A DNA stretch of 64,000 nt from Psammoneis japonica (taxonomy: Eukaryota), in contig QPGO01000027.1 in NCBI GenBank assembly GCA_008632985.1, positions 496,001 to 560,000 of the forward strand. The letters are read 5' to 3'. Below the pieces are notes generated by a model, which was not told the origin of the DNA, did no database searches, and saw only the letters and a program-made list of their open reading frames with translations. Made by a program: the position numbers and the translations under genes. Below, piece by piece: positions 27,540 to 57,560 of the stretch. Position 1 is the first letter of the stretch. Each line of letters starts with the position of its first letter.

Positions 27540-29640
27540 GTTCGTGGCCGGTTAAAGGAAAAGAGAAAAAAAGAGGGGAATCAACCGTTGAACACACACA
27601 CACAATTGACCATGCAACCATGGCCAGAGTTGCACTGGCTTCTTTTGATCCAGGGTGGTTGCTGCAGGTGCAAAGAGTGGGGCACATTGCAGTTGCAGGA
27701 GGGTGACAATGTGGCACTGAGTGTGTGCCACCAGGCTGAGCAGCCCAGCTTGGGCATCAGCCAAGCCCTGCCAGGCCAGCTGCCCTGGCTCCAGCTGCTC
27801 TTCCCAGTGTGCGTGAGTTGTTGAAGGAGCACCACATTGACTCAAAGGCTGTGTTTTAAGTGGGGCAGAGAGAAAAAACTGTTGTCTTGGCTGGTGCTTG
27901 CTTCAGACCCTGCATCATGAGCGCAAGCTCCTCTTGAGAAATGAGCGAGAATGGCCATTTTTGGCGCCTCTCTTTGGTTGCCCACTTGGCATTGCCAACA
28001 AATCTTGAACCAAACTTCACTCACAGTTTCTTCACTCTTCAACCACAAAACCAGGTTCAACTTTTTGTTGGCTTCTTTGTGGCTGGGGTCACTGTTGCAG
28101 GCACAAATGGTGGGCACATGCCATGTGGCTGCTTGGCAACAAGAGTGTGATGCCAAGCATGTGCTGCACACCAAGGAGCCAAGCAGCCCAGCCCAGCTTT
28201 GAATGGAGCCCCAGGACAGCAGCCAACTCTGGGTGATCTCAGCATGGTGTGCTTGTTTGGGCTGTGCTGCACTCACCCCACAGTGCTCTGTGTTGTGGTG
28301 GCTTGTTGTGCAAGCCGTGTGGCTGAAGAGCCAGCAGCCAGCCAGGGCCCATCTTGCAAAGGCCACAAATGTTGACCCTGTGCAAAGCTGTGTGAGGGGG
28401 CAGGCACAGGGATTTGCAATGATGGCTTCACAGCCATTGGCCCCAAGTTGGCATTTGATTGGGATCCAGTGCTGAGGGGCTGTGAAGTGTGGGGTTGGGA
28501 GCCCAGCCAGCTCGCACTCTCTTTGTTGTCACAAAGTGCTGCCACAGCTGTCTTTGCATTGCAGCCAGCCAGGTGCGGTTGACCCCAAGTTGGCACTTGA
28601 TTTGGAGTGACTGCCAAGGAGCTGTGAAGTGTGGGGTTGGGCAGTCCAGCCAGCTCACACTCTTTGCTGACAGCAGAAAGCACTGTCGCAGCTGTCCTTG
28701 CGCACACATGGCCAGAGCAGCCTTGGCACATCCTGCTGACAAAACTGACAAAGACAGCGACTCTTGTGGTTGAGCCACTCAGCACGCAGGAGATCTGGGC
28801 ACACTCCTGGGAAGTCAAACAGGAAGGAGGGCTGAGCATTGCCGCCAGTGCCAGGCACAAATGTCAGCTTGTCTTGAGAGAGATTCGAGCCCACACAGCC
28901 CCGCGTTGGGCATCTTTGCTGGCAAAATGGAAAGCATTCTTGAGCACATTCTGGCATGTGGGCAGCACTGTCACCAAGAGGGCTGCTCTGCAGAGGAAGA
29001 GGGAAATGGGCAACAACATTTTGCAAGAACTGTTTTGTGTCAATGGTCGGGTGGGATGTGGCAGCATCATCTGGACTTTGATGGAGCATTTGGCGGACAA
29101 AGCTTGAGCACAGAGAGTTGTCCACGCAAGCTCCACAAGTGGCACTTTCCAAAGGTGACACCACACATGGGCCATGTGTTCATGCATCAACATGCCTCAA
29201 GCTGCAAGTCACACAAAAAAACCACCACCAACCTTTCAGCCAACCACCATCATGGACAGAACAGGTCAAGAGGTTCAAAACAAGAGCGATTCATTGACTC
29301 TCTTCTGGTTCCATGCATTCAAGAGCTTCTTGTCCTTCTCAAATGTTTGTTGTGCATTGTTGTCTCTTTTAATTCAAGTGCAAAGAGGAGTCACTTTTCT
29401 TGTTTCCATCTCTTGAGATGTTGTTGGTTGTTGAGTGATGCAACTTTTGTTGTCACATTTTTGGAAATGTTGGCAAACCCGATCACTGCTTGATTGTCAA
29501 CCCATTTGCTGTTTTAAGTCTCCATGGCATAAAATGCCATAATTCCAGAGCCCTCAATTGTTTCATCAAACGCAGTGCTTTGAAACACGTCCAACATCAA
29601 CTCGACTCAGTTGAAATCCCAGTTTGTGGGCGATGAAAAA
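27540..29640. other. TpA/CpG-depleted hypermutated island (decayed repeat or gene)
   Basis: Only a handful of TA dinucleotides in ~2 kb, few CG, strong TG/CA excess. Internal ~142-bp-period direct repeat (ccccaagttggca at 28441 and 28583). Confidence 0.85.
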
Positions 29641-36773: not shown

Positions 36774-37432
36774 TTACACGTCACCACGATGAAAAGGTCC
36801 CGAAGGAAAAATCTTGTTCCAATCTGTTGAAGGCCCATGGTATTCCGTATCCATTAACTCGACATTCCCAATCGAATCAATCAGTGCATCAATTTTCTGA
36901 TACTTGTTGTCGCGCAACAAGTCTTCAAGATCTGATTCTGCTATTACTTTTTTCCGAGCAACCGGGGCGGCTGGAGGATTAAATGGGTGTACAGCATCAC
37001 GTTCTTCTTGCGAAAGATCGTTCTCAAAGATACGGCGTTGAATTGGTAAAAGTTTGTAGTCATGGTAAAGAGTGAGCACGGCTGGAGAAGGATAGCTGAC
37101 AATTCTCAAACCCTGATATGCTGGATGGTCCCCCGCAAGGCATGTAAAGCAGCATTTCGCTACCAAACGGCGTGTGTTGTAACCTTGATTGATTAAATAA
37201 CAACCCAAATGCTCGGCTCCTTTCTCGACACGTAGTGCATTCGGAAAGTAACCAAGTCAGGGAGAGGCGCTGGCATTGGACCACCCTTTTCATGGCACCA
37301 CGCTAAAGCCTTACGGCAATCCTTGCAACAGCATTCTAATCGATACAACGGTGGGGCCGCAAGCGATATTGCCACCTTGCTGCAGTTACACTTGAGCGAA
37401 GCGAATGCTGACCGTTGTGTAGGAGCAGACAT
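36774..37432 (-). CDS. GFA/CENP-V-like Cys-zinc protein
   Basis: CNCSKV...CCCKDCRK...WCHEKGG...YFPNAL...RRLVAKCCFT; 1-bp deletion ~37250; paralog at 60377-61000. Confidence 0.65.
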
Positions 37433-37589
37433 GAGAGTAAGTACAAAGATCAATGGGACAACAAGGCAACTATGGTCAGGTATCGAATGCTTTTCTGTCG
37501 GCTTACCGCCATTTTTTCTTTTCCTCACTTCCGACTTCATGATTTCATTGTCGGGCGACCATGCTCTGGGAGTGGTAGAACCTCTCTAT

Positions 37590-37814
37590 CGAGTAAATCT
37601 AGCTGCCGAATAGGCTCAGCCACTCACAGTCTTAGTACGATAGCGCGAATACAACCAATAAGATGCTTCTAGGCCTGTTACAACTACGACAGATGCAACA
37701 AGTGAAAAAACCATTCCGTGGTCATCGGCATTTTAGTCCGCACACCAGTCATAGTTTCTCCACAGCACCTCCTAGAGCACACTAGACAGTCTCTGATACA
37801 TCGGATTTCACTCG
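37590..37814 (-). repeat. Copia 3' LTR (225 bp)
   Basis: Direct repeat of 44022-44245; preceded on the minus strand by PPT-like GAGGGGAC. Confidence 0.95.
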
Positions 37815-40800
37815 GTCCCCTCGAAATGTACCTGACTCGTAAGGCACAATTCGATCCAATGCTGCATCAGTAGTCCAACTCAAACAATCTTGACTTATCG
37901 ATCGACGTAAAAACCCTTGCTAGGGAAAAGTCGCCAATCCTCTGTGCATGGTGTAAACCCTCACTAGGGAAGAAACTCACCACCGCTCCACGTGTCCGTC
38001 TCAATGCGTGAACTTGTCTAACAGAAAAATTCCGTCTGATGGACGACATGACCTTTGTGAACAGATCGCAAAGGTTTGTCTCTGTTCCCTCCTTTGCAAT
38101 CCTAACAGTCCCCACAGCAACAGCTTCGCGGTTGCGGTGATGCGCAATGGAGTGATGCTTCTTCTTGAGTGTAGACTCAGGAATGGAGCAATTCTTGCAG
38201 ACGGCCTCATTGTCACAGAAGACATTTGTTGGCCCTTCGATCGGTGCCCCAAACATTCGAAGCTCACGTCGTAGACCCTCTATGAGCTCGATGGCATTCT
38301 TGAGTGCAATGATCTCAGCCCCAAATGTGCTAGCCTCCACGGCATTCTGACGCTTCGAGTGCCGCACGATGGGTGCCCAATCAACAAACATCAAGATGCC
38401 TGCATGGCTGCGACGATCGGCAACATTTCCGGCATGGTTGGCATCCACAAAACAATGTGTCGATGCCACATTACCTCGGGCTGGCGGTGCATTTGTCGGG
38501 ATGGCTTCTCTTGCATCTTGGTGGAAGTCACACCAGCCGCACTTCACGAATCGCGATTCATCGATCTTGGGATGAGCCGGATCAAATGCCACTTGGCGCT
38601 TTGGAACCTGTTTGAGGTGTGCAAAGATGTGCAACACCTGTTCCAGATGACCAATGCGAGGAAGAGCAAGGTGAGCAGACATTGACGAAACCTCCAAATG
38701 GACGTCCACTCCACCGAGTTCCACAGCCCAAACCAGTGCACCAATCAGCTCTTGATGGCAGTGAAGTCCTTCAGCATCCAGTTCGCCAGCAGTGTCTAGC
38801 TCGGGTTTGCATCCACTGCTCAATGGGGTTGTCGCCTTGCTGGGCAGACGTTTCCCCTCCTTGCCAAGCCTGTCCTCTACATTTTGGACAGCGGACTTGC
38901 AGCACTTCTCCGCAGACATTGCCCAACAGGTGGTCCCATCGGCTAAAGTCATCTTGGAAAGCGCATCACCGAGATGAGAATCCGGTTCGGCTACCTTGTC
39001 ACCCTTGAGCTTGAACTTGGACCTGATGCCGTCCATCGTCTTCATGGGTTCGTGACCAATTGACAGCACGTCGTCCACATAAACTGGAACGTGTTCGCAG
39101 CACTCGAATCCATCGGGTTTCACCGCAGGTTGCATCCACACATCCGGATCAGCCTTGCTCGGTTTGCACCCTAGATCATAAAGCGTCTCCGCTGGGAATG
39201 CCCCGAACGCTGCTCCGGAGCTCTTCAATCCGTGTGGAGCCCTGACCACAATCATGATGCAACCTTCATCCTCGCCAAACTCGGAACCTGCCCTGGTCCA
39301 AATCTTCTCCCTGCAAGGGGCAGCAAGGTGGGCGTTCTGGACATCACACGCAAAAGACTTGCAAGTCATTGAGCACAGCAAGCGTCAGTGCAATCCTTGC
39401 CAAATCCCGAGAGATGACAGAGGAGCAAGTGATGTGTGCGGGGGGTTTCAGCAGTGTGGCCTCCAGCCACCATGCGAGCTTTGCGGCGGAAGTTTTCTCC
39501 CAATTTGATGTCAAAAATCACACGGCACTTCACTTCCTGGAAACCAGGCGCCATGTCCTTAAGCTCCCCTTCACACTTGTCAAAAGCAACCCGCACATTC
39601 TTCATCTCCACACAAATGGCGTCCCACCATGGGGTGTTGCCATTTGCGCGATCGATCTGGATCGCCTCCTCGACACTCTTTGGGATCCGTGTGCCAAATT
39701 TGTGTGTTCGTAGCCAATGCTTCGACTTGACCTTCGCAATGGAACGCTTGCAGGTTTTCATGACATGAGGAACCCACCAAGCAAACGCTGCCTCATTCGA
39801 GATCTTGCGCTGAATGGCAAACTCGGCAACTTGGACTGGGAAGCTCTCCTTCACAATCTTCAAGTCGGTCCAAGTCGCACTTCCGTCCTTCCATTGGAAC
39901 AGGAGTTCCCATCCTTTGGTGGTCTTGCGCCTCTTCCGAACGCCTTGCTCGGTCTCAAAGAACTCGGATTCAGGAACGTCCCCATTGGTGCGGCAATCAA
40001 CGATCTCGTCAAATGAGACATGCCGGTTTCCGTCCTCGTCGATCTGAGCAAACACATTCATGGCAATGGAGTCAGCAGAGAGCGCAGCATGGTGCCCATC
40101 AGGGTGCTCTACCTCATGCATCCTTGCACCAAGGATGGGATTGTCATTGGCTGTTCCTGTCGGAATGCCATTGGCGTCTCTCAACCTCTTCGTGACACGA
40201 GCAAACTCAGGACCGTTGTCATCTCTTGGAAGCGCAACTTCCATGTTAAGGTGTCCCCAGTCCACCGCCTCCGGTGAGGCTTCCTCGTCTTTCTCATCGT
40301 CATCGTCATTTGTCACCTCCTCTGAGGACATGACACGATCACACTCATCAAGGAATTCATTGTCACATCCAAGGCAGTCTTTCCAGTCTTCGGGACTGAT
40401 CTTGCGATCCTCGTCATCGGGAAAGTCTTGCTCCTTCAACCGGCACTTGATCTCCTCGTCAAAACTGTCAAACTTTGCCTTTTTCTCTTGAGCAGCGGCT
40501 TCTAAATTGGTGACTCGTTGAACAGAAGTTCTCAAAATGACACTGCCTGTCTGTGTCAAAACGCAACACGACATGAGACTCCCTGTTCTGTGAGATGCAC
40601 CAAGCCACCTGCCGAGCTTCTCGTCCCCTGGACCGGCATTCTCCCTGCACCAGACCCAATCATAAAATCCAAAGTCAAGGTGCTCCAAGACATCCACGGT
40701 CTCTCCGAGAATGTTCTCCAGTGGTGCTCCAGCATCCAAATGATGGGCTCCAAGGAATGTGCGAGACATGGTCTCACATGTCCACATGAATCCGCAGTCC

Positions 40801-43800
40801 CATGGTCGCCGCGGCACTTGCTTCTTGACCATGATGCGGAGCCACTTGCGTCCAACCTCGCGCACAACCCCTTCTGCAGGATTCTGGTTGTGTCGATCGG
40901 GTTTGATGATGTGACAATCCATGCCCTCCTTGCGCACGGTCTTCATGAACTCCGTGCCAGGTTTCATTTGCTCCTTAGATCCATCCATCAGGAGTTTCTC
41001 TGGCACGCCAAATTCCTGGCAAAACATCTTGAGAGCCTCGCCAGCCTTGCTCTTCTTGTCCATGGGATAAATCGCAGCAAAGCATTGCTTGTTTGTAAAG
41101 ATCTGGGCATGTCGATTGCCCTCCAACGAAACCACCTTGCCATCGACCGTGTTGGTTGCCCATTCACCCCGTAACCTGGGCTTCGTGAACATCCGATCGG
41201 CCCGGTGGCGTCGACCCATTGGCATCAATGCTGACCTGATGAGCTTTTGTGCAGTCTTCTTGAGCATGTTTGCTGCTTGCTTGAGTCCTGTGCACCATCG
41301 TTCACTTGAGTCAGCAGCCAACACATCACTGTGTCTCTCCTTGGACATGAATGTCTTCGGGAGTGCTGAGTCTTTGGGTCATTCGCCGATTGTTTCCGTG
41401 GCAGAGATCTGGACTGTTGGCTCCGATTCCACATTGATGGCAGCTGTGAGCCTCGATTGGACTTGATCGACTCCACAAATGAATTGCTCATCGCAACAGT
41501 CCCCGGATTGAGGGTTGCTGAGGCAGGATCGGCTTTGAACTCGTGTGTCAGATTGGTGTGGATCGTCGCAATTGACCGAACTAGCTCCATTTCCTCCTCC
41601 GCAGATCGTCTAGTTCCAACAGATTTGAACTTGACGGTCTGTGGATCCCAAGGTTGTTGGGAGGTCATCTGGATCTTGGGGCATCAGTGCAACTCCTGTT
41701 CTGCAGGAGCATGAGTCACCGCAACGACATTGGTCCCCATGGCTTCAAGCGGCATCATGAAAGATCTGTCCTCTGTGAGGACACACAGTGGTGAATCGGA
41801 GCAGGGGTTGTCCTGAACCTTAGCACCAAAGTGCCGCAGCTGGTTTGGGTTAACCAGCGAGTGCTCCATGGACTCCGGCATCCACAAGCCCTCGTGGAAG
41901 ACCAGAATAAAAGTTGCTCCCGATGTCGGTGACGTCCACGCCGTGGCTGCCGAGACAATTGGGACACACTTGATGGAATCGCATCCCTCGTTAAAAGGCG
42001 ATGCGTCACATTCTCGTCCAGAACAACCTGAGAGGGTAAAGTTTTGACCAAAAACAGTGGTGTCAGCATGCGAATCCATTTCAAGGCATCCATGTTGTGC
42101 CTTTCTCATGTCACGGATGTGAGTGATTCGTGTGGTGTCAGACCGCATTGCCGAGACACGCCGTGTCGAGGCAACGACCTCACAGACGCGTTTGTTGCAG
42201 CCACGTGGATGCTGCTCCTTTGATCGATGCGGCTGTCCCCCGCCCCATTGTGGCAACCACAACAAGAAGTTTGTGATGCAACAAAGCAGGGTCCAGCTTG
42301 GCAGTCATTTGTTCTTTCCTCTGCACTTTTTGCTGCGACCACCGAATGCGTCTCCGGCATTGTCTCCGTCTTTGCCGCCAGCCCTTGATTCATCATTGCC
42401 AGAATCGGCGCTGGCATTAGTGTTCAGGGCGGAGATTTTGAGGTTCGCTTCTTTAAGCTGCGACGACAGCTTCCGATTCTTCTTCTTGAGCGACTTTACG
42501 GATGCAGCACGGCGTTTGGTTGGTTTGGGTTGTTTGGCAACACCTGGACGCACGCGCTCGTCGACAACCTTCTGTTTGTCCTCCTTGCTCAACTGGTGCC
42601 AATTTTTGTGGCATCCAGTGTCAATGGATCCATCCTCATCATAGATGGTTCCACCCTCTTTTCCTCCTCCAGAGGCGACTGCGGCAATCGCACGACGATG
42701 CACAATCGTCTCTGGAAGGGTGGCGACTTTGGCAGCAAGATGATTGGCCGCCGTGGTGAACGTGATGCCTCCTCCAAACTCATTCTGTGCCTTCAAGGTC
42801 TCAACCACTGCTTGCAGTGATTGGTGCTGCGTCTTCTCAAAAAGGATCCGCAATTTCTGGGCCTCCGTTTTCGGTTCGTCGTTCTCCTCAAAAATGTCAA
42901 ACATTTCTTGGAGCTTGTCAACAAACGATTCAAACGGCATGGCGCGCTCACTCTTGCAATGGAGGGTGTTCTCCATGTGCTCGGCTTCAGAGATGCGGCG
43001 GGAGGCACTTCCTTCTCCCTGGCAATGGTCACACAACGCCCTAAAGTCAACTCATCCATTCTGCTCATTCTTGTGGTCTTTCAACCATTGCTCACTGGGT
43101 GTGCCCGTGGTGAGGGACTCAATGAGCAAATGAACCGCACGAGTGTCAGCCTCGAAAGCTGGGCCTTGGAGGGGTGCACATGCAATGCACTTCTGGACAA
43201 AAGTGTTGTGGCCTTGGGGTCTGGGTGCATCGTTTTGACGCATGCAATGCACTGACGGCACGCCAGAGACTCCTGGCACAATGCCAAGCATGTTCGTCAA
43301 GCCGGTGCTCCACTTGACCCAATCCTTTTCGCTCTCTGACATCCCGGGTGACGCCTCTTTACTGAGAGAGTCAGCAGTGGTCTTGGTCAGGGAACGGATC
43401 TCGGCACGACTGAGTGCTGTCTGGAGAGCAGCACGGAAAGTTGCCTGGTCAAGCCCATCCAGAGCAGGGTTCTTGCTCACACGACCAAAGTCCTGCACCC
43501 AATGGATGAGAGCTTTGAGTCGACGACCACGGGCCAAACCAAAATGAATGCGCCCTTCAGCAACCGTCCTCCTGGCGTGTGATGACGCGAGAGAATCGAT
43601 GTCCTCTTCCTTGAGGTCTTCTAAATCGTCAAAAGATGCAAAGTCTGCCATGAGCGAGACTCGTTGAGCTGGATCAACAAATCCAATCCATTCAAGTGCT
43701 GTCTCGATGGGATCCGGAGGAGCAGCCGCCATGGTGGCACCCACACCAGCAGGAAAACAGAGTCATGTGAGAAATCATAAATTAAAAGGATGTCTCGGTC

Positions 43801-44007
43801 TGTGTTGACGACAACACATGGCCATCAGAAGCACGGAGACTGGCCATGTCTCCTCACTGCTTGTGCACTCACTGATGCCAGGCGACGACAATCATCGTGC
43901 ACCCTTCGATCGACCGGCGTTCATCGTCATGACCCTGCCACATTGGTGCGATCGTCTCTTCACAGTTGTCCAATGCTTTTCGTCAAACCAAACCTGAGTT
44001 GATGACT

Positions 44008-44018
44008 TGGCTCTGATG
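44008..44018 (-). other. Primer-binding site core, tRNA-iMet-like
   Basis: Minus strand CATCAGAGCCA, 3 nt inside the 5' LTR, versus canonical TGGTATCAGAGCCA. Confidence 0.65.
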
Positions 44019-44021
44019 GAG

Positions 44022-44245
44022 CGAGTAAATCTAGCTGCCGAGTGGGCTCAGCCACTCACAGTCTTAGCACGACAGCGCGAACACAACCAATGAGATGCTT
44101 CCAGGCCTGTTGCAACTACAACAGATGCAACAAGTGAAAAACCATTCCGTGGTCATTGGCATTTTAGTCTGCACACCAGTCACAGTTTCTCCACAGCACC
44201 TCCTAGAGCACACCAGACAGTCTCTGATGCATCAGATTTCACTCG
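44022..44245 (-). repeat. Copia 5' LTR (224 bp)
   Basis: Direct repeat of 37590-37814 with 15 transitions and one 1-bp indel. Confidence 0.95.
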
Positions 44246-44282
44246 CTGTCGCTCTCTGCTAGCTGGCCAGCTGCTCCACTAG

Positions 44283-44810
44283 CTAGAGAGCTGTCTGCGC
44301 TGCCTGCACTGCACTGCAGCATCTGCCTGGCTGGCAGCCCAAAACGTTTGCAGCACATTCTTCCTTCTCTCTTCTTGTGAAATGGCATGTTTGGAGAACC
44401 CCATTTGTGTCGAACGCCGTTGCACGAGTGAGCCAAACCTCAGTCAGAAAAGCACCAAAAGGCACAAGAAATCGCAACAAGGCAAACAGCACTTGACATC
44501 TCGCTGCTTCCATTGCCCGTGCCCCACCCAGGATCTGCCCCATCATCATCCCTGGAGTGGAAACCAAACCAATCACTGCCATGGAGTTCACCATGGGTGC
44601 CCCAGCCAGCAGCTCACACTGCTTCCCAAATTCTGCTCGCCCCAACAACAACAGCCACCGGCCCATGCCAAGCACAACAAAGAGCTCAACCTCGCTCGTC
44701 TTCTGCTCCAACAGACACCTGCAAGCATCACATTTGGCGACAGTGCAGTGGCATTGATGCAACAACCAAAGAAGCACTCCAGCAGCTGGGACAATGTGGC
44801 AGGAGCACCA
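44283..44810 (-). pseudogene. UPF0014/YbbM(FetB)/STAR2-type ABC permease remnant
   Basis: PMVNSMAVIGLVSTPGMMMGQILGG...AARCQ matches the family motif GLVSLPGMMTGQILGG...AARYQ; frameshifted. Confidence 0.8.
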
Positions 44811-44811
44811 G

Positions 44812-47800
44812 CAAAGCATGTGTTGTCAAGTGGATGAAATCACACTTGTTCACAATTGCACATTGTTGCTCACGTCAATCACGCGACAATCGTGGATGTG
44901 CGCAATGGTCAGATTGGTCACACAGAAAAGATCAGAAGTTTAAAATTGCAAACACAATTGGCAGATGATGTTGAAATACAAGATTTCAATTTCAGTGCAT
45001 CTGGACAATCTGTTGTCACGATTGGATCATCCGAAAGGCCTTTGCTCTCTGCAGGAGCAGCGCAGCAGCTTTGGGCCATTGAGAGCTCCTTAAGAGTGTC
45101 CCAAAATGGCAGCAAAGGATCTGTCTCACAATTTTCCACTTTTCATGATTTGTTCTGCTTTTGTTTGTGCTCATTCTTTGAGCATGGTGCATTGTGCACA
45201 CACACCAGAGAAGGTAAAAACACAAAAATGAAGCTTTTGCCTCATGCAACCAACGGCAAGTCCATTGTCAAGCAGGACAAGATCACACCTCAACCGCTGG
45301 AGTCAATTTCTGAGCCCAAGACTCTCAAATTGAGCCATTGCATGAAGATGGAGCAGTGTTTTTATCCCAGAAACAAGAAGAGCGGCGCATGCATGATCAA
45401 CATCGAGCACTGCAACAAGCAGGGAGCTCCAAAATGCATCGCATTTATGAAGACTGCACAAAACTTTTGATCAGACAGAACATCAAGGAGCAAGCTGATG
45501 AGTTCCACAAGATGCTTGTGTTGTTGCAGGGAGACACTTTTCAAGTTTTGGAGACAAGGCAATGAACATTGACAAAAAAGCCGAAAGAGCCTTCAAAAAG
45601 TGCCTGCATTGTCTCTCAAGCCATGCACTCCCAAAAAATGCACTTCAGAATCAGAAATGACATCTGCGTCATGATCTCAAAAAGCCAGACTTGACAAAGA
45701 TCTGAGAACTTGCAACCTGGGCTCAGGAGGTCAATGAAGATTTCAAGCTCTGTTCTCCCTTCAAGTCTGACCAGAATCTGGACAAAGATGAGCTCAAGGA
45801 CATTGTCCACAACCTTGCACCTTGCAAGTGGTGTCACCAGTCAACGCCACAAGGTTTTGAAATTCTGAATCATGTGTTTGATGAGTTGGTTGAGTTTTTG
45901 GAACATCTGGAGGTTGCAGGAGACACACTCAACAAATCCATTTCAAGGATGACAGCAAAGGCAAGCCTGGTTCCAAAACCAAAGGTGGCTCCAGAAATTG
46001 TTCCAAAAATGGTCATCTCTCTGGCACAAAATAGACTGAGTCCAATGAGCACCAGTGCAGTTGTTTTGCAAGAAAAACACTCACATCATGGATCAGTGCT
46101 GGGTCATCAAACATCTGGCAAAAGAATGCCAAGACAATGCTGAAAATGCAACTCAAAGCAACAGTGCACCAATGGCAATTGCATGTGGCAGTCTCGCAGC
46201 AACATTAAAATGCCACTCCAAAAGGAAATTGAATGCTGTGATCAAACAGGTGGTTGACAATTCTCTCAAGGCAAGTTCCAATGTAAAGAATTTGAAGCGC
46301 AAGAGCAAAGAGAATGTGACTCTGACACCCTCAGCAAGGAAAACTGTCAATTTGAGAAAATCATGCACAGCGACTCTGAAGAATGACTGGTGCCACTCGA
46401 GGAGTCTTGTGCACTGCTGGATGTTGGGAAGCCCAAAAAGGGCCAAAGCAATTCATGCCAGTCCAGCAGTCATTGTTTGTGTGAACACCTGCTCCTTGGA
46501 CAAAGCAAAAAACAAGCCTCTGTGCATTCTCCTCAACAGTGGAACATTGTCTGCCACAATTTTGTGCAATTTGTTCATGCAGAAACTGAGATCAAAACAA
46601 TCGTCTTCATGACTGACAGCGAGCACACTAAAATCCAGTTCACATCACCTGAATTGATTGAGTCAAAATGACACATGTTGACAACACCCCTCTTCTTCTT
46701 TGAGTTGTTGTGATGTGATCATGGGATGCAACTTGATGTCCAGTCATGGGATCAGACCAGACTTTGCAATCAAAGAAATCAAATGAGAGGACGCAACTGC
46801 ACCCATGAAGAGTGTTGATGCACTCTTCAATGCTGTTGTTTTCAAGTTGATTGCGGATCACATTGAGGCCTCTCATGCTGTGATTGGCCTCAATGACAGG
46901 GTCAGTTGGATCCTTGACTCAGATTGTCATTCTCCTGACCTTGATGATGTGACTGCAGCAGCAACTCATCCAACTCCAGAGGAGCAGAAACAGCCAAACT
47001 TTCTCCTGGAAAGATTTGAGAACCTTTTTGATGGTTCTCTGGGCAAATGGATTGGGAGAAACCTGTGGATCTCAAGTTGAAATTGGGCACAAATCCGTGT
47101 CTGGCAAAGCCATTTCCTGTGCCACAAGAATTGGATGCAACTGCTCAAAAGGAAGTTGAAAGACCATGCAAGTTGAAAGTCACAAGAAAAACATTCTGAG
47201 TGGGCAGCTCCAACCTTCACTCAGCCCAAGAAAAATGGTGGAGTTTGGTTTTTGTCCAACTTCTGTGAGCTTGACAAATGGTCAGAAGCTGGATGGAGGG
47301 TTTTGTGTGTGCAACCTCACTGGATTTGAATGTGGGACATTGCCACATTGAATTGACACCACATGCACATCGCTTGTGCACACTCATGATGCCACGGGGC
47401 AAATGCAAGCACTCACTGCAGACTCCCTGTGGGAATCTCTGGAGCTCCAGACATTTTTCAGGAGCATGTGAGCAAGCTTGTGGCAGGCTTGGAGTTTGTC
47501 AGAATTCATGCTGATGACATGCAATGCCTGACAAAAGGTGACTTCAAAGATCATCTCAGAAAGCCTGAGATGATGCTCGTGTGGCTCCAACAAGCCGGGT
47601 TAAAGGTCAGTTTTTGCCAAGCCAGAAGTGGGCTGTCTGGGCTTTCACATTGCGCAAAATGGTGTCAGACCAATGCCTGAGAAAGTGGAGACAATCCCAG
47701 CAACTGCAATGCCTGCAACTTGCCAGGAACTGCAATGCTGCATTGTGGTGTGATCAGCTGTTGTTGAGACATGTGGCCTTGAGGATCATCCAAGGTGAAG

Positions 47801-50800
47801 TGGCAACGGATCAAAAAGGAACAAAAAGCCTTCAAAAACATGAAGCAAATTGTGTCAAAAGACATGTCATTGTCACATCCGACCCTTTGAGACATGCGCT
47901 GATGTGAGTGATTCTCAATTGGGGGCAGTCATTGCACAGAACAACTGGCCTGTTGCTTTCTGCAGTCATCAAATGGAGTGCAGACATGCCACACTGCAAC
48001 TGAAAAAGACTTCTGTCCACAGTGGAAACACTCAAAAAATTCCAGAATGTGCTGTTTGGCCAACAGATTGACAAACACGGATCGCAAAAATCTCACTCAT
48101 GAGAACTTCACAACAGACAGAGTCATGCGTTGGTGACTGACAACAGAAGAATGCAGCCCCGAATTGGCTCATCTCAAGGGCAAGGCAAACATCATCGCAG
48201 ATGCAGTCAGCTGACTTGCTGTGAAGAAAATTGAGCCCATGGAAAAATCTCAGCAACGAAGATCCAGCTGCAAAGGTTGCACTCAAATCCTGTGACAATG
48301 TCTTTCTGTTGACACACAAAGCTCTTGATGCTGAACAAAAATGGGACAAAGACATTCTCTCCAAATTGTTGGATGCAATGTGTCATGCAAAGACTTTTCT
48401 TGGAGGTGAGTGAGACCAGTTGCTCACATGCAACAAGCACAAATTTGTTGCACCAAAGACATTGCAAAGAAAGTCGGCAATGCAATCAGCCGACTTGCTG
48501 TGAAACAAACTGGGACATTGCCGAAAATGACTGAGTTGGTCACCTCGCACATTTGTGCCACATTGAAGATTGCGAGCACAAACGGAACAGTGTGATGCAC
48601 ATGGAGCCATTTGAGAAACTTTTTCCAATGTTGCTTGCAATGTCCAAACAATGTCTTTCAGACATGTTGCTCATTTCCCACTCTTAAACCAAGAATGCTC
48701 AATCTCAAACTGCACAGTTTGAGATTTGCAAAAATGCCAAACCAGCCAGTTTAAGATTTGTCACAATCTCAAACTGTTTTGTCACAATCTGAAATCATCT
48801 CTAAATCTGAAGCAAGGCAATTGTGAGCTGACAAAGCATTTGAAAGGAAACACACATGTGAAATGCATTGAGAGAGCAGAGTCCATTGTTCGTCAACAAG
48901 ACAATTTGAAATTGTCCATTGGCAAAACATGATGTGCCTCTTTTTAAAGAGGGCAGTGGCTGTTTTTCAGTGACGACTTCTCACAAGTCATGACAAGTGT
49001 TTCAAAAACAATGAAAGCAAAAAGCACATCAGGGCAGTTTCTGACTTCATCAACAGGTTTGGCAAGACCCCAATGGAGTCTTGTCAGTGCCACAGGTGTT
49101 TTGTGCATTCAAAAACCCCAACACAGCACTGTCTTTCTCATTGCTGTTGATGGGGCAAACACACTCATGCAAGCAAGCCCAAGCACCCTGCTTTCAACAA
49201 GAATGCAAAATGTCCCTGTCACAAATTCAAGCAAGTGGTGTTGTCATGCAAACTCAGGATGTCAATTTTTACAAACAACCTTGCAAAACAAGCCAGGTTG
49301 TGCGCCATTGACAACTGACAAGAAGGGCTGCATTGTGGCCACTGCGTTGTTTCTGTTGGATTGTGGCTCACATGATTGTGAGTGCTGCAAAGACTCTGCA
49401 ACAGCACTTTCTGAAAAACTTTCACAGCCAAGGTCTGCGCATCAACAAAGCAGTTGTTTGCACATGACGACTCTTTCAATGGAAGGGATTGGGAACCAGC
49501 GCATGTTGCATGGGGCCAGCTCTTTATGCGGTCAAAGGGACCTGTCACAAATGGCAAAGATCCCATTGCCGTTTGTCATCTCGATGGCTTTGTCAATCTT
49601 GTTAAAGTGTGTTGTCAAAATCTTAAACTGTGTCATCGAAAATCGCACTGTGTTGTCTAAATCTTAAACTGTGTCATGAAAAATTGCAAAATCTTGAAGA
49701 AAACGTCAAAATCTTAAACTGTTTTGTCCAAATTTAAACTGTGCAGTTTAAGATTTGTCTGAATCTTAAACCACACAGTTTGAGATTCGCAAATCTTAAA
49801 CTGGAACTGTCCACTCTGAAACTGCGAGTTGTCTTGTAGAAGGGACAAACTGTGAATGGCCAAAGTGCTCTTTTGTGGCATTCGCACTTGACGACATTTT
49901 TGGCCAAAAGACTTTTTCATTTGACAATTTTTTTTAACATGGTCACATGACACATCATGAAATGACTGTTTCAGGTCATTTCCAGGATGTTCCAGAACCT
50001 GTGGAAAACCTCAGCAGCTCTGAAGAGTTGGCAGCAAAGGTGACCCCCAAATCCTGCAACAATGTCTTTCCATTGACATGCAAAGTTCTGACGCAACATG
50101 TTGTCCAAAGACTTTTTGTGGAGGTGAGCAAGATCAAATGCTCACGTGTCACAAGGAAAAAATTGCCACACCAAAGATGCTGCAAAAAATGGTGACAGAT
50201 TGGTGTCATGTGCACCTTCTGCATCCTGGCACAAATTGAGTTGAAGAGACAATCTCACAACACTTGTGGTGGTCACCTTGTGTGATGACATGCAAAAACA
50301 CATGTCAAAATGTGGCGCATGCCAGACATTCAAGAAGAAACAAAAGAAGGAAATGTGGACATTTGCCACCTGAGTGTGCAGAGTCAGTGCCACGGGAAGT
50401 GGAGACCTTGTTGAACCATGCAAGATGCATCGCAAGGGCAAAAAGAAACCCCAGTCCTGAAATGTTCAACAATGGCAGATCCAGCAACAGGATGGTTTGA
50501 AGTGGTGGAAACTCCAATGAGGGGTCAACAACCATTGCTGGATTGTCAAAAGGAGCATGGTCAAGCAGACATCCTTGGCCACATCATTGATTGCTTGTGA
50601 TTGTGGAAGTGAGTTCATCGGACATCAATTTAGAACAATGCAGCCCAAGATGATTGTGGCATCAAGTGCAGCCCCACAACTGCACAAAATCCTCAAGCAA
50701 ATGCCATGGTTGAGCACATGCATCAAGTGCTGGTTTGCATGACACACACACTTTTGATTTACAAAATGCACCCCTGGATGCTCAGAACCCATTTGAGGGA

Positions 50801-51533
50801 ATGCTGTCAGCAGTGCAGCCTTTGCAGTGCATTTGACATGTTCAACCGAAACATGATTTTCAGTGTGTCCAACACGTTGCTGACTGGAAGTTTGTCCAGA
50901 AATGCAAACAAAATGTTGCAAATAAAAATGACGCAAGAGAGAATGCATGGCACACTCTTTGCACATGCGGCGTGGGAGAAAAGATCCCACTCAAAAACAA
51001 TTCTCAAAAATTAGAACAGCCCTGTGCTGGGCCTTGCATCACAACAACTGCACACACCAATGGCGCAGTGCAGATCAAAAGTGGTGATGTTGTTGACACC
51101 ACCAACATCCTTTGAATGAATCCATTTGATGAATGACTCCAATGTGCAATTGGGGAGGTGAGTGCAGCATGCTTTGTCAAAGAGATGAAATTGCGCACAT
51201 TCACAATTGCACATTGTTGCACATGTCAATCATGTGACAATCATGGATGCATGCAATGGTCAGATTGATCACACAGAATTGATCAGAAGTCTAAAATTGC
51301 AATGCAATTGGTGAACAATGTTGACACATGAGATGTCAATGCAATTGCACCCGAACAATCTGTTGTCATGATTAGATCATCTGAAAGGCCATTGCTCTGC
51401 AGGAGCAGCACAACAGCTTTGGGCCATTGAGAGCTCCTTGGGAGAATCCCAAAACTGCAGCACAGAATCTGGTCTCACAATTTTTCACTTTTCATGATTT
51501 GTTCCACTTTTGTTTGCACTGGTCCTTTGAGCA
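44812..51533 (+). mobile_element. Heavily decayed, composite Ty3/Gypsy LTR retrotransposon
   Basis: Diverged LTRs ~44812-45184 and ~51163-51533; TGG after the 5' LTR; PPT tggggaggtgag at 51151. SEWAAPTF..PKKNG, GISGAPDIFQE, IHADD (YxDD), DVSDSQLGAVI, KGKANIIADAVS, integrase remnants. Confidence 0.85.
48680..49830. mobile_element. Insertion bounded by AATCTTAAACTG motif/palindrome clusters
   Basis: Motif clusters at ~48680-48810 and ~49617-49825 in both orientations; interrupts Gypsy pol. Confidence 0.55.
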
Positions 51534-54500
51534 CAGTGCAAGTGAGGTTGAGGCCAAACAATTTCACAGAGCACCAAAGTTGGCACACAAGTGCAGCTCT
51601 TGTCAAAAGTGCAGCCAACATGCCCAAGAGCCTGGCCTTGAAAAACTCACCCAAGGCTGTCAAGAGATGCTGATGGCTTGAGATTGATTGACTCTGGACA
51701 ATTTAAGATGGCAGGATTCTTTGTGCAGGTGCTGTTGATTTCTTTTGACTTGCTCCACATGGGGTTTGTTCTCACCCACACCATCATTGACAACTTGCCA
51801 CTCATTGCCAGGTCATCCATGCAGCAGATCAAAGAGAAAGGAAAGCAGTCCATGGCTTTGCACCATTGCTTGCTTTCAAGCTTGGCTCCATCAGTGCTCA
51901 ACTTTCTTGCAATGAAAAGCAAGACACTTGGAAGATTGGCAGTGGGTGAAGCAAAAGCAAAAGTTGAGTTCTCTGTGGCTTTGGAAGCAACATGCAACAT
52001 CAGACATGCCTCCATTGTGACTTGCCTTTTTCATTGACAGCATGCCAAAAACATGCCATTGAAAACAACAAGTGTGGTGCCTGATGTTCTGGCAGACATT
52101 GGCTTTGTTGGGTGACGAGCCATTGTGCCATGATGAGTCTGGTGTGATTTCTGCACAGAGGCCACAAACAAGCCAGGTCTGTGGCTGCAGGGGGGGGGGG
52201 GGGGCATTTCACACAGCAGCATGCATGCTTAGATGCCAATGTGGGCAATGGCAACGCAGGGTGTTGGAGCTTCACAGCTTGCTGACCAGTGCGCGTTTGG
52301 TCTTGCCATCACTGAACTCTCTGTGTGGCTTGCAAACACATCACCATTTTGCTGTCAACTGGGCGCAGAAGCTAAAAAGTGTGAGCACAAGACCTGCAAC
52401 TCAACCCAAGCTGCAAACACAAACTTGCCACATTGTCCACAATTGTCAGTGCATCTTTCCACTGCAACTTTGCCTCTCCTGCAAAAACCACCTCTGGCCC
52501 CAATGTTCCAACACACTTCTCATGAGCCATCAATTGATTGGCCTTGTGCAAATCAAGAAGCATGGAAGGATGACATTTGGAGTCCATGCCACCCAATGCC
52601 ACATCAACTGTTCTGCCAGTTTCCATGGTCCGCATCATCCAACTCCAACAAAAAATGAACATTGTCAGGGCAATTCATTCTCACATGCCTGACCCAACCA
52701 CATTTCCAGCATGCAATGCGCTCCTTCTCTTGCTCTGCATGAAACTTGTGAGGCAGGTTTCCTGCCATGCAGGTGCCCTCCAACACCTGTGGTGCCTCCT
52801 TGGCTGACTTGGGACAAATGTCAACCCCCGGTGTGAACTGCTGATGTGGGTCTTTGAAGACTTGCCAATGTTCCTTGGTGCCTTCCATTGGCATCACCAA
52901 CAGCAACTTGTTCCTTTCTTCATTCTGGGTGTGTCATCAGCATCCTTGCCAAACCCATCTTCCTTTCTTGGTGATTTCTTCTGGGTTGACCCTGCCATGG
53001 GACATTTGTGCTGCTTCAACCATGCTCACAAACCAACTGCAACAGGAGTCTTGAAGTGACAAATGAGCCCCAATTGCTTCCAAGCCTTGACCACCTGAAC
53101 ATGTGGGGGTTTGTCTTCTCATTTGCATCAAACAAGATCAACTTGAGAACATCCAGCAGTGCTGCCACATCCCACTCCTTTGCAACTCTTGAAAACTCAG
53201 TCACTTCTTCAAGTTTGTGACAAAAACCTTTGCTTTCTGCATCTTGCAGATTGCACTCTGTTTCGCACTTGTCCCAGATTGACTTCTCCTTCTCTCACAA
53301 AGCAACATTGCTGTTGACTGCTGTCACCGTGTCAACTGGTGCAGATTCTAAAAAGTGAGCACAAGACCTGAAACTCAATCCAAGGCTGCAAAGACACAAA
53401 CACACCACATTGTTCACAATCATCAATGCATCTTTCCACTGCAACTTTGTCTGTCTGTCCTGTGAAAACCACCTCCAACCCTGATGTTCCAACAGCGGGT
53501 GAAAGAGTGGAAGATGGACATGGATGGGTGGGGACAGACTGGATTGATTGGAGCAACAAGGTGAGTGCACCAGTTGAGATTTTTTTTGCAACACTTCAAC
53601 AGCTGCACACATCTGCAGCACCTGTGTGTGGGGTTGTTCTGCAAAGCTTTTAGACCACAAACTGCGGGGTGGGAAGAAGCTTCCCAAAGTGCAGGACAGC
53701 CCACCCAACAAGGAGCTGTCATGGACTTCAGCACCCACATGGCCACACCCTCTCTTCAACCATGTTGGTCTCATCTGAACATTCAACAATTGACTTCAAC
53801 GGCCCTCAATGACAGGTGGTTCACATGCCAACCAGTGCTTTCAAGTGTCCTCAAAAGGCAATCTGACAGCTTTGCATTCTTTCAAGATGGCTTGCTGCTT
53901 TCTGCCAGGGACCAGGAGACCCCAAGCTGCTTGACACTTTGTCTCTTAGCTGCAAGAAGCATTTGAGCAGCCCCCTTTCAAGGCCCACACACTGCTGTTT
54001 TCTGGCCCTGTGAGATGGTTGGCTGATGCCCAAAGAGCACTCCACACCACCCATCTTGGGCCGCCACACTTCTCCATTGCTTGGAGGATCTAAAATCTGC
54101 AACTTCAGAGCCTCCAGAGAAAGTGGCAGATGATGAACTCAGCAAGAGCAGCAGCAACTTGCCACTTGTTGCTTGCTGTGCAGCACGACTTGTCCTTCTT
54201 GCAACAACTTGTGCTTTGACAGCCAAGCACAAGGGGCAGAGCCTGGCCAGCTCTGAGCAGCTGCTGCAGCAATGAATGTCATTTCATCAGTCAATGCTTT
54301 TTCACCTGCATGAGCAAGAGTGCCACTTCATTCAATCTTTGTTGCCTGCTCTGACTGTCATGACATTGCACCAAGTTTGATTTTCCTTTCCTCCAAAATT
54401 TTGCAATCTGTGGCTCCACCCCCTCACTGCATTTTGATTTTCCTTTCCTCCAAAATTTTGCAATCTGTGGCTCCACCCCCTCACTGCATTTTCTGCATTA

Positions 54501-57500
54501 GATGATGCTGTTTTTAGATGCACATGTCCAATCTCTTCACTTGCTTCATCATGCTTGTTTTAGTCACACTGTTTGGTTGCACCGCCACTCCATTCTCTGG
54601 TCATTTTTGCAATGATGCAGCCAGATTCTTTTGTTTGCCCTCAGTGCCAACATGCCAGATTTGCTCAGTCTTGCTGCCATCACTGTGATGCAGCAACTGG
54701 CCCAGTGAAGGCTTTCTGTTGTCTTTGTTGTGTGGACAAGGTGTTTTGACTCTGAAAGCCAGGTGCAGTGTGTCACCTTTCCCGCCACTGCACTGGCTTC
54801 ACTTCAATTCCATCCATCACAGAGTGCAGTCATCATCAAGAGCTTTTGCCTTGCTGTTGTCCCCAGCTTCTTTTTGCAATGTTGCCCAGCACCTCCAGAA
54901 GTGTGCCCCCTGCCATGACTTGGAGGACCTTTCATGCCGAGGATCAAGTTCAATGCTTCATGGTGCACTGCTGTTGGGCACACCAGTTTCTTGTCAGCAT
55001 CACAAAACCAATGTTGTCATGGGGAGAGACAGCCAAGAGGTTTTTTTGGTTAAAAAGAAGTCCCACAGTGAATGCAGAACCAAGCTCACCACTGTGTGAG
55101 CAAGTGCCTCCACCAGAAATGCAGCCAAGTTGATGTTCCTCAGTGTGAGCCATGTGGCATTTTCTGGCACAACAAAAGGGACAGGCTTGTCTGCAGTTGT
55201 GGTGGGGCATGACAGGGAAACAAACAATGCAGCACCAGCACTGTCAAAATGGTTTGGCACAGGCACATTGAACAAAAGCAATGTGAGAAGAAAAACAAAA
55301 CACTGCCAATGCTTTGTGGGTGGACATTGAGCCAAAGTGATCATTGAAAATTGGGTCTGCTTTCTGAGTGACAGAAATGTCAGCTGCAAAGATGGCACAT
55401 GTGTCACTTTTGTTGAGCATCACATCAAAATGCAAAACTGGTTGTCAAGAAAAAATGATTGACACAGCACAACTTGGAATGAAGCTGGACATTGTCCCAG
55501 GTGGGCAAGGTGCCAGTGTCACAGAATGTGATGAAAAAGGCACTCAGCTGTGAAATTTTGATCCTGGGTTTGAAAAAATGAACACACACACACCCGGGAG
55601 CACTCATCACTTGTTGCAGCACCATGTTGAAACAGAGAAAATGCAACAAAATGTGCTCAAACAGGAGGCACCTGCAAATGTTTTACAAAATCAAAAATGG
55701 GAGCATGCCAATGACAACAAACAAAGACACTTCATTTCACCACATCACTCCTGGTGTCACAAACAAGAGAAGACAAGGCAAAAAATGCAGAAACAAGATG
55801 TGGTGTGGCAGGTCAAAGAAATGGAAGGAACAGTGTTGACAGGTGTGCCAGAACAAGATGGTGTCAGCACAATGTCAAGCAGCACGTGATGACACAGCAT
55901 GACACACACTGCAATGACAGAGAAACTGGCATGTTTGCTGCTTCTGTTGTGATTGTGGATTGTGGCTGCTTTGGGCCAAATTGCACTGCCACAAGCCCTG
56001 CACTGGTGGATTGTTGGCAGTGCAAACAAACAAACAAACAAACAAACATGGAGAGATGAGCCATTTCTGGCTGGGGCAGGCCTCCCCCCAGCAGCAGGAG
56101 CACTGACAACATGCTCAAATGTTGGCTGACAGTGTCATCCAAGGTCTTTGCCATGTCAACGCACTTAAAAACTTTGTGACAAGACTGTTGACAAAGCTGA
56201 GAAATTGGAGAAGGATGATTGCAGCACAGGAAACTTGCAGTGAAGATGTGAAGAACACAAAGCATGCAGCTCAAGGCAGGGGCAAAGCAGCAAAGCAGAG
56301 CCAAGGCTGGAGCAAAAAAGAAGGAGCACAGAAGTTCAACAAGCTGTGTGTGTGTGGATCAAGCAAGACAGAGAGAGCAATGAGGGCTTCAGTCTGTGGC
56401 TCAAGGAATGGAGGTGACAAAGGCAAGCTTGTGAAAGGAAGAAAAGAAGAAACAAAAGAGGAGCAAGGCAAGGAAGGAGAGAGAGAGGAAGGGTGGGCCA
56501 AGAGCCAGTGGGGGGCAATCTGCCACTGCAGCTGGTGGCTGCAGGAGTGGCAGCTGAGGCAACAAACCAAACGAGTGTTCAAGCAAACATTCAAGAGTTG
56601 GCTGCAATCTGGATCATGGTGAAAACACCAAGCAAGAAATGGGAATTTGGTTTTGTGTCATGGATGGATGGCAGGTTAAAAGGGTGCTTTTGAAGCAGAC
56701 AGGACAAACAAAAAATGCAGAAGGACACTCCAGGTCACATGGCTGCCTCAAATGCAAGTGAGAGCTGCCAAAGAAACAAGAAAGCACAGTTGTGACACAA
56801 GGTGAGCTTTCAGATTTTAAATCCAGGAACATGGGACAAAAGGCAAGAGTGCCCAATGCTGAAAGTCAGGTGCAATTTAGAGTCAGGGATGCCATGAACC
56901 TGGCCAGTTTTGAGCTGAAAAGAAAGCCGAAACCCAACTTGTCAAGTGACACTGTCCTGAGATTTCAGCTGGGAAATTGCCAGATCACATTGATGGCCGG
57001 CGGTCAGAGCCAGAATGCTGGCATCCCAGATGCGCTGCCAAGGAGCTGGACATTAATTTGCTGAACCCCCACAAAGGCCAAAGTGTCTGGTTGTTGTGTT
57101 GTTGCAAGTCACTTCAAGCTTGCAAGAGCCCCTCTTCCATGTTCTTTTCACCGGATGAGGCACAAAGCTTCACACAGAGAAACATTGAACAAGCTTTCTC
57201 ATTGTGTGCTGCTGGAGGGAAAAAGCACCACCACAAATTGTGCTTGAATCAGCAAAGGACTTTTTTGCACACCCCCACGTCGTTCACTCCTCTTGCAATG
57301 CCAACTTGTTGGCAAACAACCCAGCTTGAGAGGAAGCCACAGGCAGGCCTGGCCACACAGCCTGCAGTGACAGCTGCAAGGAATGAACCAAAAGGAGGCA
57401 TTGCAATTGTGCTGTGAGCAAAACCAGTGCATCTGGCAGTGCATTGACACACAAAAATCCACATGGTGTGTCGTGCTCCCCTCTCTTTTTCCTCTCTTCA

Positions 57501-57560
57501 TCATCCAGCCACAAAACATTGCAAAATTTTGCTTGCAGGACTTTGATTTGCTCCTTCATG
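51534..57560. other. Mosaic of unidentifiable hypermutated repeats
   Basis: TA and CG nearly absent. ~150-bp diverged direct repeat at ~52352-52495 and ~53329-53477; GWS..EG..KFN.L-like remnant near 56310. Confidence 0.7.
54376..54492 (+). repeat. Perfect 57-bp tandem duplication
   Basis: tttgattttcctttcctccaaaattttgcaatctgtggctccaccccctcactgcat at 54376 and 54433. Confidence 0.95.

Follow-up and report, generated by a model that had tools for sequence, protein, structure and literature searches.

Why should a retrotransposon polyprotein carry histidine or cysteine at positions where its intact relatives carry tyrosine? The question is raised by a 64,000-nucleotide stretch of the diatom Psammoneis japonica (contig QPGO01000027.1, positions 496,001 to 560,000), referred to here as the window, in which a dead Ty1/Copia retrotransposon with long terminal repeats (LTRs) occupies positions 37591-44245 on the minus strand, at the left edge of an island of transposon relics of about 20 kb in the nuclear genome. 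An earlier note on this DNA had read the altered polyprotein as the coding trace of a loss of TpA dinucleotides. The comparisons described below show that the element has undergone a post-insertional, dinucleotide-specific and strand-symmetric A:T to G:C hypermutation of its DNA, whereby TpA was converted to CpA or TpG. The fuller reading, in which a predicted enzyme carries out this change and CpG decay accompanies it as a form of mutational defence, is one to which we assign a probability of roughly 0.8.

All nine recoded peptides quoted in the earlier note were found on the minus strand, in the open reading frames (ORFs) at 37867-39384 (APHGLKSSG, GFECCEHVPVYVDD, SGCKPELD, HCHQELIG and SIAHH) and 39366-41378 (PWDCG, EHLDFGFYDWVWC, MHEVEHPDG and KSKHWLRTHKFG). 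When the expected motifs were judged by the majority residue of 60-120 intact homologues, these read LWDYG, EYLDFGFYDwVWY, mYEVEYlDG, KSKYWtRTHKFG, ALYGLKSSG, GFkYYEYVLCYVDD, sGYkPELD and SIAYH, so that the tyrosines proposed for these positions hold in every motif except HCHQELIG; here the earlier note had expected YYQELIG, but the homologues have Q-w-Y-QELIG, which leaves the third residue as the single conserved Tyr. Across the element 1329 codon columns were covered by at least 60 homologues, and 546 of these are at least 90% conserved. Tyr is retained in 3 of the 26 conserved Tyr columns, as compared with 449 of 520 columns for the other residues (Fisher p = 4e-16); the remaining Tyr columns are now occupied by 12 His (CAY), 6 Cys (TGC), 1 Arg (CGT) and 4 Phe, as the claimed recoding of Tyr to His or Cys requires. 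The next-worst retention is that of Ile (9/18) and Thr (15/25), whose replacement codons (ACA, ATG, GTC and GCN) are those predicted by the loss of TA within codons and across codon borders. Recoding of Leu to Pro (CCA), which the earlier note had also named, is real but minor, affecting 3 of 38 conserved Leu columns.

Among the 94 conserved columns in which the residue has been replaced, 21 are explained by TA>CA and 15 by TA>TG, with a further 3 that are ambiguous, and 11 by CG>TG or CG>CA. The rest comprise 8 other unambiguous transitions, 2 ambiguous cases of another transition or a transversion, 17 transversions and 17 codons with more than one base change. Substitutions are thus enriched at TA (36-39 of 94, against the 8 other unambiguous transitions), and elsewhere than at TA only 5 changes are unambiguously A>G or T>C. 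Nor do active relatives share the altered residues: in 120 long homologues, His plus Cys make up 0.3% on average (maximum 8%) at the 26 conserved Tyr columns. The change of Tyr to His or Cys (TAY to CAY or TGY) is the coding footprint of the TpA change, to which the replacement of Leu by Pro, of Val by Ala and of Ile by Thr or Met also belongs, as do changes at codon borders. The numbers of TA>CA and TA>TG events in this comparison (21 and 15) are in accord with strand symmetry.

The direction of change is given, independently of any protein comparison, by the two direct LTRs (224 and 225 nt) that flank the coding region at 37591-37814 and 44023-44245. These are 93% identical; an alignment of 224 bases shows 15 substitutions between them, together with one indel. 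At 6 positions a TA in the left LTR corresponds to CA in the right LTR and at 4 to TG, while a CG in the left corresponds to CA or TG in 4 cases; the one other substitution is an A>G located beside a mutated TA. All 14 of the TA and CG differences run in the same direction (two-sided sign test p = 1e-4). There are 16 TA and 11 CG in the left LTR, and 6 TA and 7 CG in the right LTR. The comparison gives 0.98 events per TA site, as against a single substitution in about 170 other positions. The LTRs of one insertion are identical at the time of insertion, and these one-way differences therefore indicate that TA and CG are ancestral, as had been claimed for TA from the protein motifs, that the change took place after insertion and that it ended short of the left LTR. 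A similar signal is present in an older pair of repeats further along the island, where 9 CA-versus-TG doublets occur among 67 mismatched positions; such doublets are expected where a single ancestral TA or CG has been resolved independently in the two copies. Two loci obtained from a metagenome scan serve as a control on the DNA of relatives. These loci (L001 and L002) encode relatives 96-98% identical to the intact homologue P0002 and have observed/expected (o/e) ratios of 0.57-0.76 for TA and 0.93-0.96 for CG, from which it follows that the family is not TA-poor by nature.

The base composition of the window reveals how far the change extends. The internal region of the Copia element (38500-44021; 5,522 bp) contains 33 TA, whereas 209 would be expected from the background density (Poisson p = 7e-52), with o/e ratios of 0.11 for TA, 0.74 for CG, 1.49 for CA and 1.42 for TG; the background (41,602 bp; 1576 TA) has 0.57, 1.00, 1.13 and 1.17 respectively. 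Depletion is stronger still in the older part of the island (44250-57500; 13,251 bp; 54 TA), which has ratios of 0.06, 0.17, 1.75 and 1.92, and in a separate block at 27560-29360 (1,801 bp; 1 TA) with 0.01, 0.16, 1.98 and 1.76. CA and TG are enriched about equally in the depleted DNA, and GC content is 0.53 in the Copia internal region as against 0.48 in the background. The left edge of the main domain is a gradient, TA being normal through the left LTR to about position 37965 and dropping over some 500 bases (to about 38472). The right edge is sharp: TA is normal again between 57054 and 57566, and an ORF begins at 57579. The separate block starts at the start codon of an epimerase gene (27539), with normal sequence resuming from about 29500. 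The depleted DNA includes a fragment of a UPF0014 gene and a reverse transcriptase (RVT_1) relic, and the process is therefore not tied to Copia sequence.

Loss of CpG proceeds in the same domain but lags behind. As the earlier note had it, many CpGs remain in the element (o/e 0.74 against 1.00 in the background) and TpA loss has run ahead: the right LTR has lost 10 of 16 TA as compared with 4 of 11 CG, and in the internal region the o/e ratio is 0.11 for TA and 0.74 for CG. Expressed as events per site, TA and CG stand at 0.98 and 0.45 in the right LTR and at about 1.65 and 0.30 in the internal region, and CpG decay is 2-5 times slower per site than TpA loss.

The TA dinucleotides that survive between 38500 and 57500 are not a random sample. 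When these are classed by their flanking bases, TTAA survives completely (28 observed, 23.7 expected; survival ~100%), TA with one protecting flank (a 5' T or a 3' A) survives at 18.5% (47 observed, 254 expected) and TA without a protecting flank at 4% (18 observed, 442 expected), so that a TA with one protecting flank is lost about half as fast as one with none. No ATAT, GTAC, GTAT or CTAT is left in this interval. If the two strands were attacked independently, each at T-A-(not A), survival with one protecting flank would equal the square root of survival with none; the two values are 0.244 and 0.265 in the Copia part and 0.147 and 0.139 in the old island, a pattern that fits two independent single-strand targets 5'-T-A-(not A)-3'. 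The rule is also apparent in the Tyr codons, for which the ancestral state is given by 34 columns that are at least 70% conserved. The 9 codons preceded by T have become 3 Tyr, 1 His, 2 Cys, 0 Arg and 3 Phe, whereas the 25 preceded by A, C or G have become 0 Tyr, 12 His, 10 Cys, 1 Arg and 2 Phe; with the Phe cases excluded, His is found in 1 of 6 codons after T, as compared with 12 of 23 after the three other bases. The flanking-base rule is a strong preference and not an absolute one. The least depleted sub-block of the island lies at 49400-50000, where 9 of the 12 surviving TA are TTAA; the bin 49501-50000 contains 12 TA and 10 CG.

As to mechanism, the likeliest route would be the one put forward for Bigelowiella natans, in which an adenine preceded by T is deaminated to hypoxanthine and then read as G. 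The TpA change would be the work of an enzyme that acts on the DNA of silenced or repeated chromatin. The CpG component may represent ordinary deamination of 5-methylcytosine in methylated transposons, and TpA change and CpG decay together would constitute a mutational genome defence that destroys the reading frames of transposons. The same post-insertion hypermutation might alternatively proceed via thymine, the thymine of TpA being oxidised to 5-hydroxymethyl- or 5-formyluracil, which mispairs with G and gives rise to T>C. We consider this route unlikely, even though at the base-pair level it predicts the same spectrum, strand symmetry and flanking-base rule as adenine deamination, and even though TA and CG are both palindromic steps, as is typical of sites of symmetric DNA modification. 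Thymine modification prefers TpA in some protists; we know of no report of such a modification in diatoms, although no search for one was made. Nothing in the sequence favours thymine modification over adenine deamination, and for the sole experimental precedent, B. natans, the enzyme put forward is an ADAT2-like adenine deaminase, a proposal itself untested as far as the available text of that study goes.

The remaining explanations place the origin of the pattern elsewhere. Editing before integration would have transcripts or cDNA altered by A-to-I changes in a UA context through an ADAR- or ADAT-like enzyme, followed by insertion of the TA-poor copy. RNA editing enzymes do favour U before the edited A, according to the available text of two reports (10.64898/2026.01.13.699255; PMC11156358), the family is multi-copy, and TA depletion is greater in the internal region than in the right LTR. 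Marks made before integration are nevertheless expected to be identical in both LTRs, which instead differ at 14 TA and CG sites in one direction, and to lie on one strand, whereas the sense and antisense changes are nearly equal (21 and 15). Moreover, the flanking copy of the target site and neighbouring non-Copia sequence are affected, and the depletion fades inside the element near 38000 rather than at its boundary. Pre-integration editing is consequently very improbable, and the LTR asymmetry largely refutes it. About as little credence attaches to an artefact of assembly or base-calling, in which modified TpA and CpG would be misread as CA or TG by a long-read base-caller. The symmetric, regional pattern at two palindromic dinucleotides does resemble modification-linked errors, and small indels between the window and the contigs of a sequencing run (X1) suggest a long-read assembly. 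The depleted island is nonetheless recovered at single-copy depth in the X1 contigs, which are up to 315 kb long and whose word depth is about 58-60 over the single-copy flanks; each piece departs from the window by 2-10 letters, and the length of the contigs at a depth of about 58 points to accurate reads. The three frameshifts and the TGA stops of the element represent real decay, four independent database proteins have the same His/Cys pattern, and the same spectrum in B. natans came from Illumina reads, as stated in the available text (10.64898/2026.01.13.699255). The idea that the Copia lineage natively avoids TA, through codon usage or a TA-cutting nuclease, and that its His and Cys residues are functional, gains something from the somewhat low TA throughout the window (o/e 0.57), but we accord it next to no probability. 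Intact relatives retain Tyr, the DNA of close relatives has normal TA, the element itself contains frameshifts and stops, and its left LTR has 16 TA where the right has 6. The Tyr-keeping homologues, the LTR asymmetry and the normal TA of L001 and L002 refute native composition or selection.

The summed depth of the X1 contigs over the Copia element is 1100-2970, which implies about 20-50 genomic copies. Differences among these copies comprise 776 transitions and 185 transversions, and among 40 of the 961 variant places the other copies have CA at 40803/40804 (TG in the window), TG at 41710/41711 (CA in the window) and TG or CG at 41717/41718 (CA in the window). Relative to the window, the contigs of other copies also carry one-base indels at 38025, 39440 and 41520, two of which are at or near frameshifts of the window copy (~39440 and ~41480). 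Recurrence is further suggested by the proteins in databases. The share of His plus Cys is bimodal in 140 representative proteins with at least 5 conserved Tyr columns, being at most 0.29 in 136 of them and at least 0.86 in the other 4. These four Tyr-poor proteins, which are 41-58% identical to the window copy, have a Tyr content of 0-0.9% compared with 3.5% in intact homologues, and His or Cys occupies 86-100% of the conserved Tyr columns in them. They agree with the residue of the window copy at just 18 of 35 of these columns, and they are independent hypermutated copies, of this or other genomes.

Several observations weigh against the preferred reading. The adenine deaminase step is one that we purely infer. 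Part of the loss in the internal region could be older than this insertion, since depletion there exceeds that of the right LTR. The left LTR and some 400 neighbouring bases have been spared, although they are multi-copy in X1, and the left LTR may have been exchanged later with an unmutated copy. Targeting may go either by chromatin domain or by sequence homology; the stretch 53764-56400, now single-copy, is fully depleted. The flanking-base rule is violated by 7 of the 56 polarised events drawn from the protein comparison (4 TA>CA with a 5' T and 3 TA>TG with a 3' A) and by one LTR site (ATAA to ATGA), and the expectations for the flank classes were drawn from the genic background rather than from the ancestral element. 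Finally, X1 is possibly the sample behind the window assembly and its library type is not on record, so that the support from its contigs is not fully independent.

Among known systems, the case is best filed as TpA hypermutation of the B. natans kind, now in a diatom. The accessible text of the preprint by Mettrop et al. (10.64898/2026.01.13.699255) reports that, of the 231 mutations seen in two viral regions integrated in B. natans mutation-accumulation lines, 230 were A>G or T>C, that every GC-biased mutation fell at TpA, with a rate roughly 1000 times the base rate, and that coding sequences with low TpA were enriched in reverse-transcriptase and DDE domains. Both cases involve a change of TpA to TpG or CpA on both strands, in foreign or mobile DNA that lies beside a normal genome, and low TpA combined with high CpA and TpG. 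In the window, too, the changes are mostly A>G or T>C at TpA (36-39 against 5 elsewhere, and 10 of the 15 LTR substitutions), and TA o/e is 0.01-0.11 in 27560-29360 and 38500-57500 as against 0.57 elsewhere. The two cases differ in that the host there is a chlorarachniophyte with integrated viral DNA and here a diatom (a stramenopile) with relics of LTR retrotransposons; as given in the available text, the giant-virus insert has a TA o/e of 0.45, whereas depletion here is near saturation (0.01-0.11), and the rate there was measured in real time, whereas here the process is known from its historical footprint alone. Furthermore, flanking bases matter here (TTAA is immune) and CpG decays in parallel; the main text of the preprint, supplements aside, contains no occurrence of flank, trinucleotide, CpG or diatom. 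This 2026 preprint, as far as the accessible literature text goes, is the sole precedent found for TpA hypermutation, and literature searches turned up no account of diatom transposons losing TpA, including in the available text of PMC2806351, PMC4504042 and 10.1101/2025.10.24.684338.

Fungal repeat-induced point mutation (RIP) resembles the present case as a transition-based mutational defence confined to one dinucleotide context, directed at repeats or mobile DNA, with destroyed reading frames and sharply bounded tracts. RIP changes C to T mainly at CpA, creating TpA and lowering GC. Here the direction is opposite, TpA being lost, CpA and TpG gained and GC raised (0.53 versus 0.48). A RIP-like trigger by duplication would be compatible with the Copia element at 20-50 times single-copy depth, yet its multi-copy left LTR is spared and single-copy 53764-56400 is depleted. 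Methylation-driven CpG decay shares the CG>TG and CG>CA component (4 of 15 LTR substitutions, 11 of 94 replaced codons and a CG o/e of 0.17 in the old island), and diatom LTR elements are reported as CpG-methylated in the available text of PMC2806351, but CpG decay leaves the TpA loss unexplained, and the latter is faster here. ADAR and APOBEC editing likewise produces clusters of transitions in copies of retroelements, and the A that ADAR-type enzymes edit is preferably preceded by U; those marks, however, are strand-specific and made before integration, whereas here the LTRs differ and both strands as well as non-retroelement DNA are affected.

Reports of TpA hypermutation of foreign DNA have until now been limited to a single preprint of 2026 on one rhizarian alga, and a saturated diatom footprint of the same spectrum would widen its occurrence among eukaryotes. 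The window also places new constraints on the mechanism, namely the immunity of TTAA, the half rate with one protecting flank, strand symmetry, sharp edges beside genes and a loss 2-5 times as fast as CpG decay, which make the search for the enzyme testable, for example with GTAC versus TTAA substrates. It is possible, although we regard the proposal as tentative and rather doubtful, that diatoms possess a dedicated genome defence by which a DNA adenine deaminase, or an equivalent enzyme, is brought to silent, transposon-rich chromatin, where it would attack each strand at 5'-T-A-(not A)-3' as an A:T to G:C mirror of fungal RIP, erasing Tyr codons and TAA/TAG faster than methyl-CpG decays; such a system would be shared with chlorarachniophytes and possibly ancient in the stramenopiles, alveolates and Rhizaria (SAR). 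For genome annotation there are practical consequences. Loss of TA removes TAA and TAG, and therefore leaves long open frames in all six frames and false gene calls; profile searches miss domains in hypermutated relics, as with RVT_2 here; and in such genomes estimates of transposon content and of age from LTR divergence will be wrong.

The features of the island are listed in Table 1. The element resembles diatom Ty1/Copia elements (the CoDi groups), as described in the available text of PMC2806351, in its LTRs, its polypurine-like tract, its putative 5-bp target-site duplication (TSD) and its diatom host, and its ORFs are 50-60% identical to intact RVT_2-bearing polyproteins of 1200-1400 aa; the window copy differs in being dead and heavily recoded, with RVT_2 undetected by Pfam. 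The sole mismatch between the TSD copies is a TA (left) versus TG (right), and support from the TSD is modest, the probability of such a match by chance being about 0.03.

Table 1. Coordinates of the Copia element, its surroundings and the TA-depleted DNA in the window (residue numbers refer to the intact homologue P0001)
Feature	Position	Strand	Basis or remark
Second depleted block, TA and CG (1 TA, 20 CG in 1801 bases)	27553-29370		Base-composition scan
Putative TSD, left copy CTATC	37586-37590		4/5 bases match right copy
3' LTR, not hypermutated (16 TA, 11 CG)	37591-37814	-	Repeat comparison
Purine-rich, polypurine-tract-like stretch GAGGGGAC (minus strand), adjoining 3' LTR	37815-37822	-	Sequence reading
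505-aa ORF: C-terminal part of reverse transcriptase and downstream pol	37867-39384	-	Aligns with residues 934-1374
TA-depleted domain	38000-57565		Base-composition scan
670-aa ORF: central pol to start of RVT_2	39366-41378	-	Aligns with residues 236-907
N-terminal pol region, different frame	41477-42163	-	Residues 18-242
gag-like upstream ORFs, 248 and 236 aa, with in-frame TGA between	42305-43762	-	Homologue alignment
5' LTR, partly hypermutated (6 TA, 7 CG)	44023-44245	-	Repeat comparison
Putative TSD, right copy CTGTC	44246-44250		Compared with left copy CTATC
UPF0014 host-type gene fragment, pseudogene-like	44286-44825	-	PF03649, E = 6.2e-15, profile positions 145-236 of 242
Older degenerate element	44815-51540	+	LTR-like pair 44815-45191 / 51166-51540, 81% identical
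RVT_1 relic inside older element	47390-47677	+	Pfam, E = 1.9e-5

The coding remains consist of ORFs of 236, 248, 206, 670 and 505 aa, every one of which is bounded by TGA. Comparison by tblastn of 120 long homologues with the element located frame changes near 41480, 39440 and 39353; an alternative placement with MAFFT add-fragments (60 homologues) was dropped, as it misplaced the gag ORFs. The assertion that the change leaves long frames open thus holds for the ORFs but not for the polyprotein, which is broken by three frameshifts and TGA stops. Long frames persist because TAA and TAG vanish, the stops that bound the ORFs all being TGA: in the interval 37000-44500, TAA and TAG occur 3.4 and 1.6 times per kb, as compared with 7.9 and 7.7 in the background, and 41 stop-to-stop ORFs of at least 80 aa were counted in these 7.5 kb on both strands and in all frames. 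The long antisense ORFs in this interval are a by-product of TA loss and not genes. The 670-aa ORF has 525 long relatives at E <= 0.001, the best of which are 1200-1400 aa in length, 52-60% identical and contain RVT_2, and the 505-aa ORF has 19,795 relatives in the representative library; the gag-like part is matched by just one long homologue (P0030). Pfam finds neither RVT_2 nor any other domain in the element's own ORFs, even at E up to 1, while in P0001 RVT_2 (PF07727) is located at residues 869-1065 (E = 2.8e-18), a stretch whose counterpart in the window is divided among three frames. An integrase domain was not found by Pfam, even in the intact homologues P0001 and P0030, and a search of the 64-kb window revealed no further Copia fragments outside 37500-44300.

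Beyond the 5' LTR, at a distance of about 40 bases and within the TA- and CG-depleted domain, lies the UPF0014 fragment, which matches the C-terminal part of UPF0014 and resembles a host-gene duplicate that has decayed. A homologue search with this fragment gave no scoring match; a diverged second copy is present in a contig of run X2, which matches 44488-44599 with 16 differing letters. The sequence at 44815-51540 looks like an older element of another type from which nearly all TA and CG have gone. The UPF0014 and RVT_1 matches are the only two obtained by Pfam for 67 ORFs of the depleted blocks, and in the separate block all 11 ORFs were negative; the latter block contains a short tandem pair (28437-28557 / 28579-28701, 79% identical). 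Immediately beyond the right edge of the main domain, beginning exactly at that edge, is a 593-aa ORF (57579-59360, plus strand) without a Pfam match, in which TA o/e is 0.33-0.52, CG o/e 0.72-0.86 and GC content 0.53-0.56, and which may be either a younger, partly affected element or a gene. The flanking ORFs represent ordinary eukaryotic genes with MutS, BAH/ORC-like, epimerase, helicase and Macro domains, the named homologues of the epimerase all being from diatoms (best identity 83%). One of these, at 18777-25801 on the plus strand, is a 1995-aa ORF with a BAH domain and an internal repeat of about 1.1 kb (21291-22370 / 22458-23543, 75% identical). It is followed, past a gap of 65 bases, by an ORF with Cdc6/ORC lid domains, and the two together resemble an ORC1-like gene interrupted by a single short intron.

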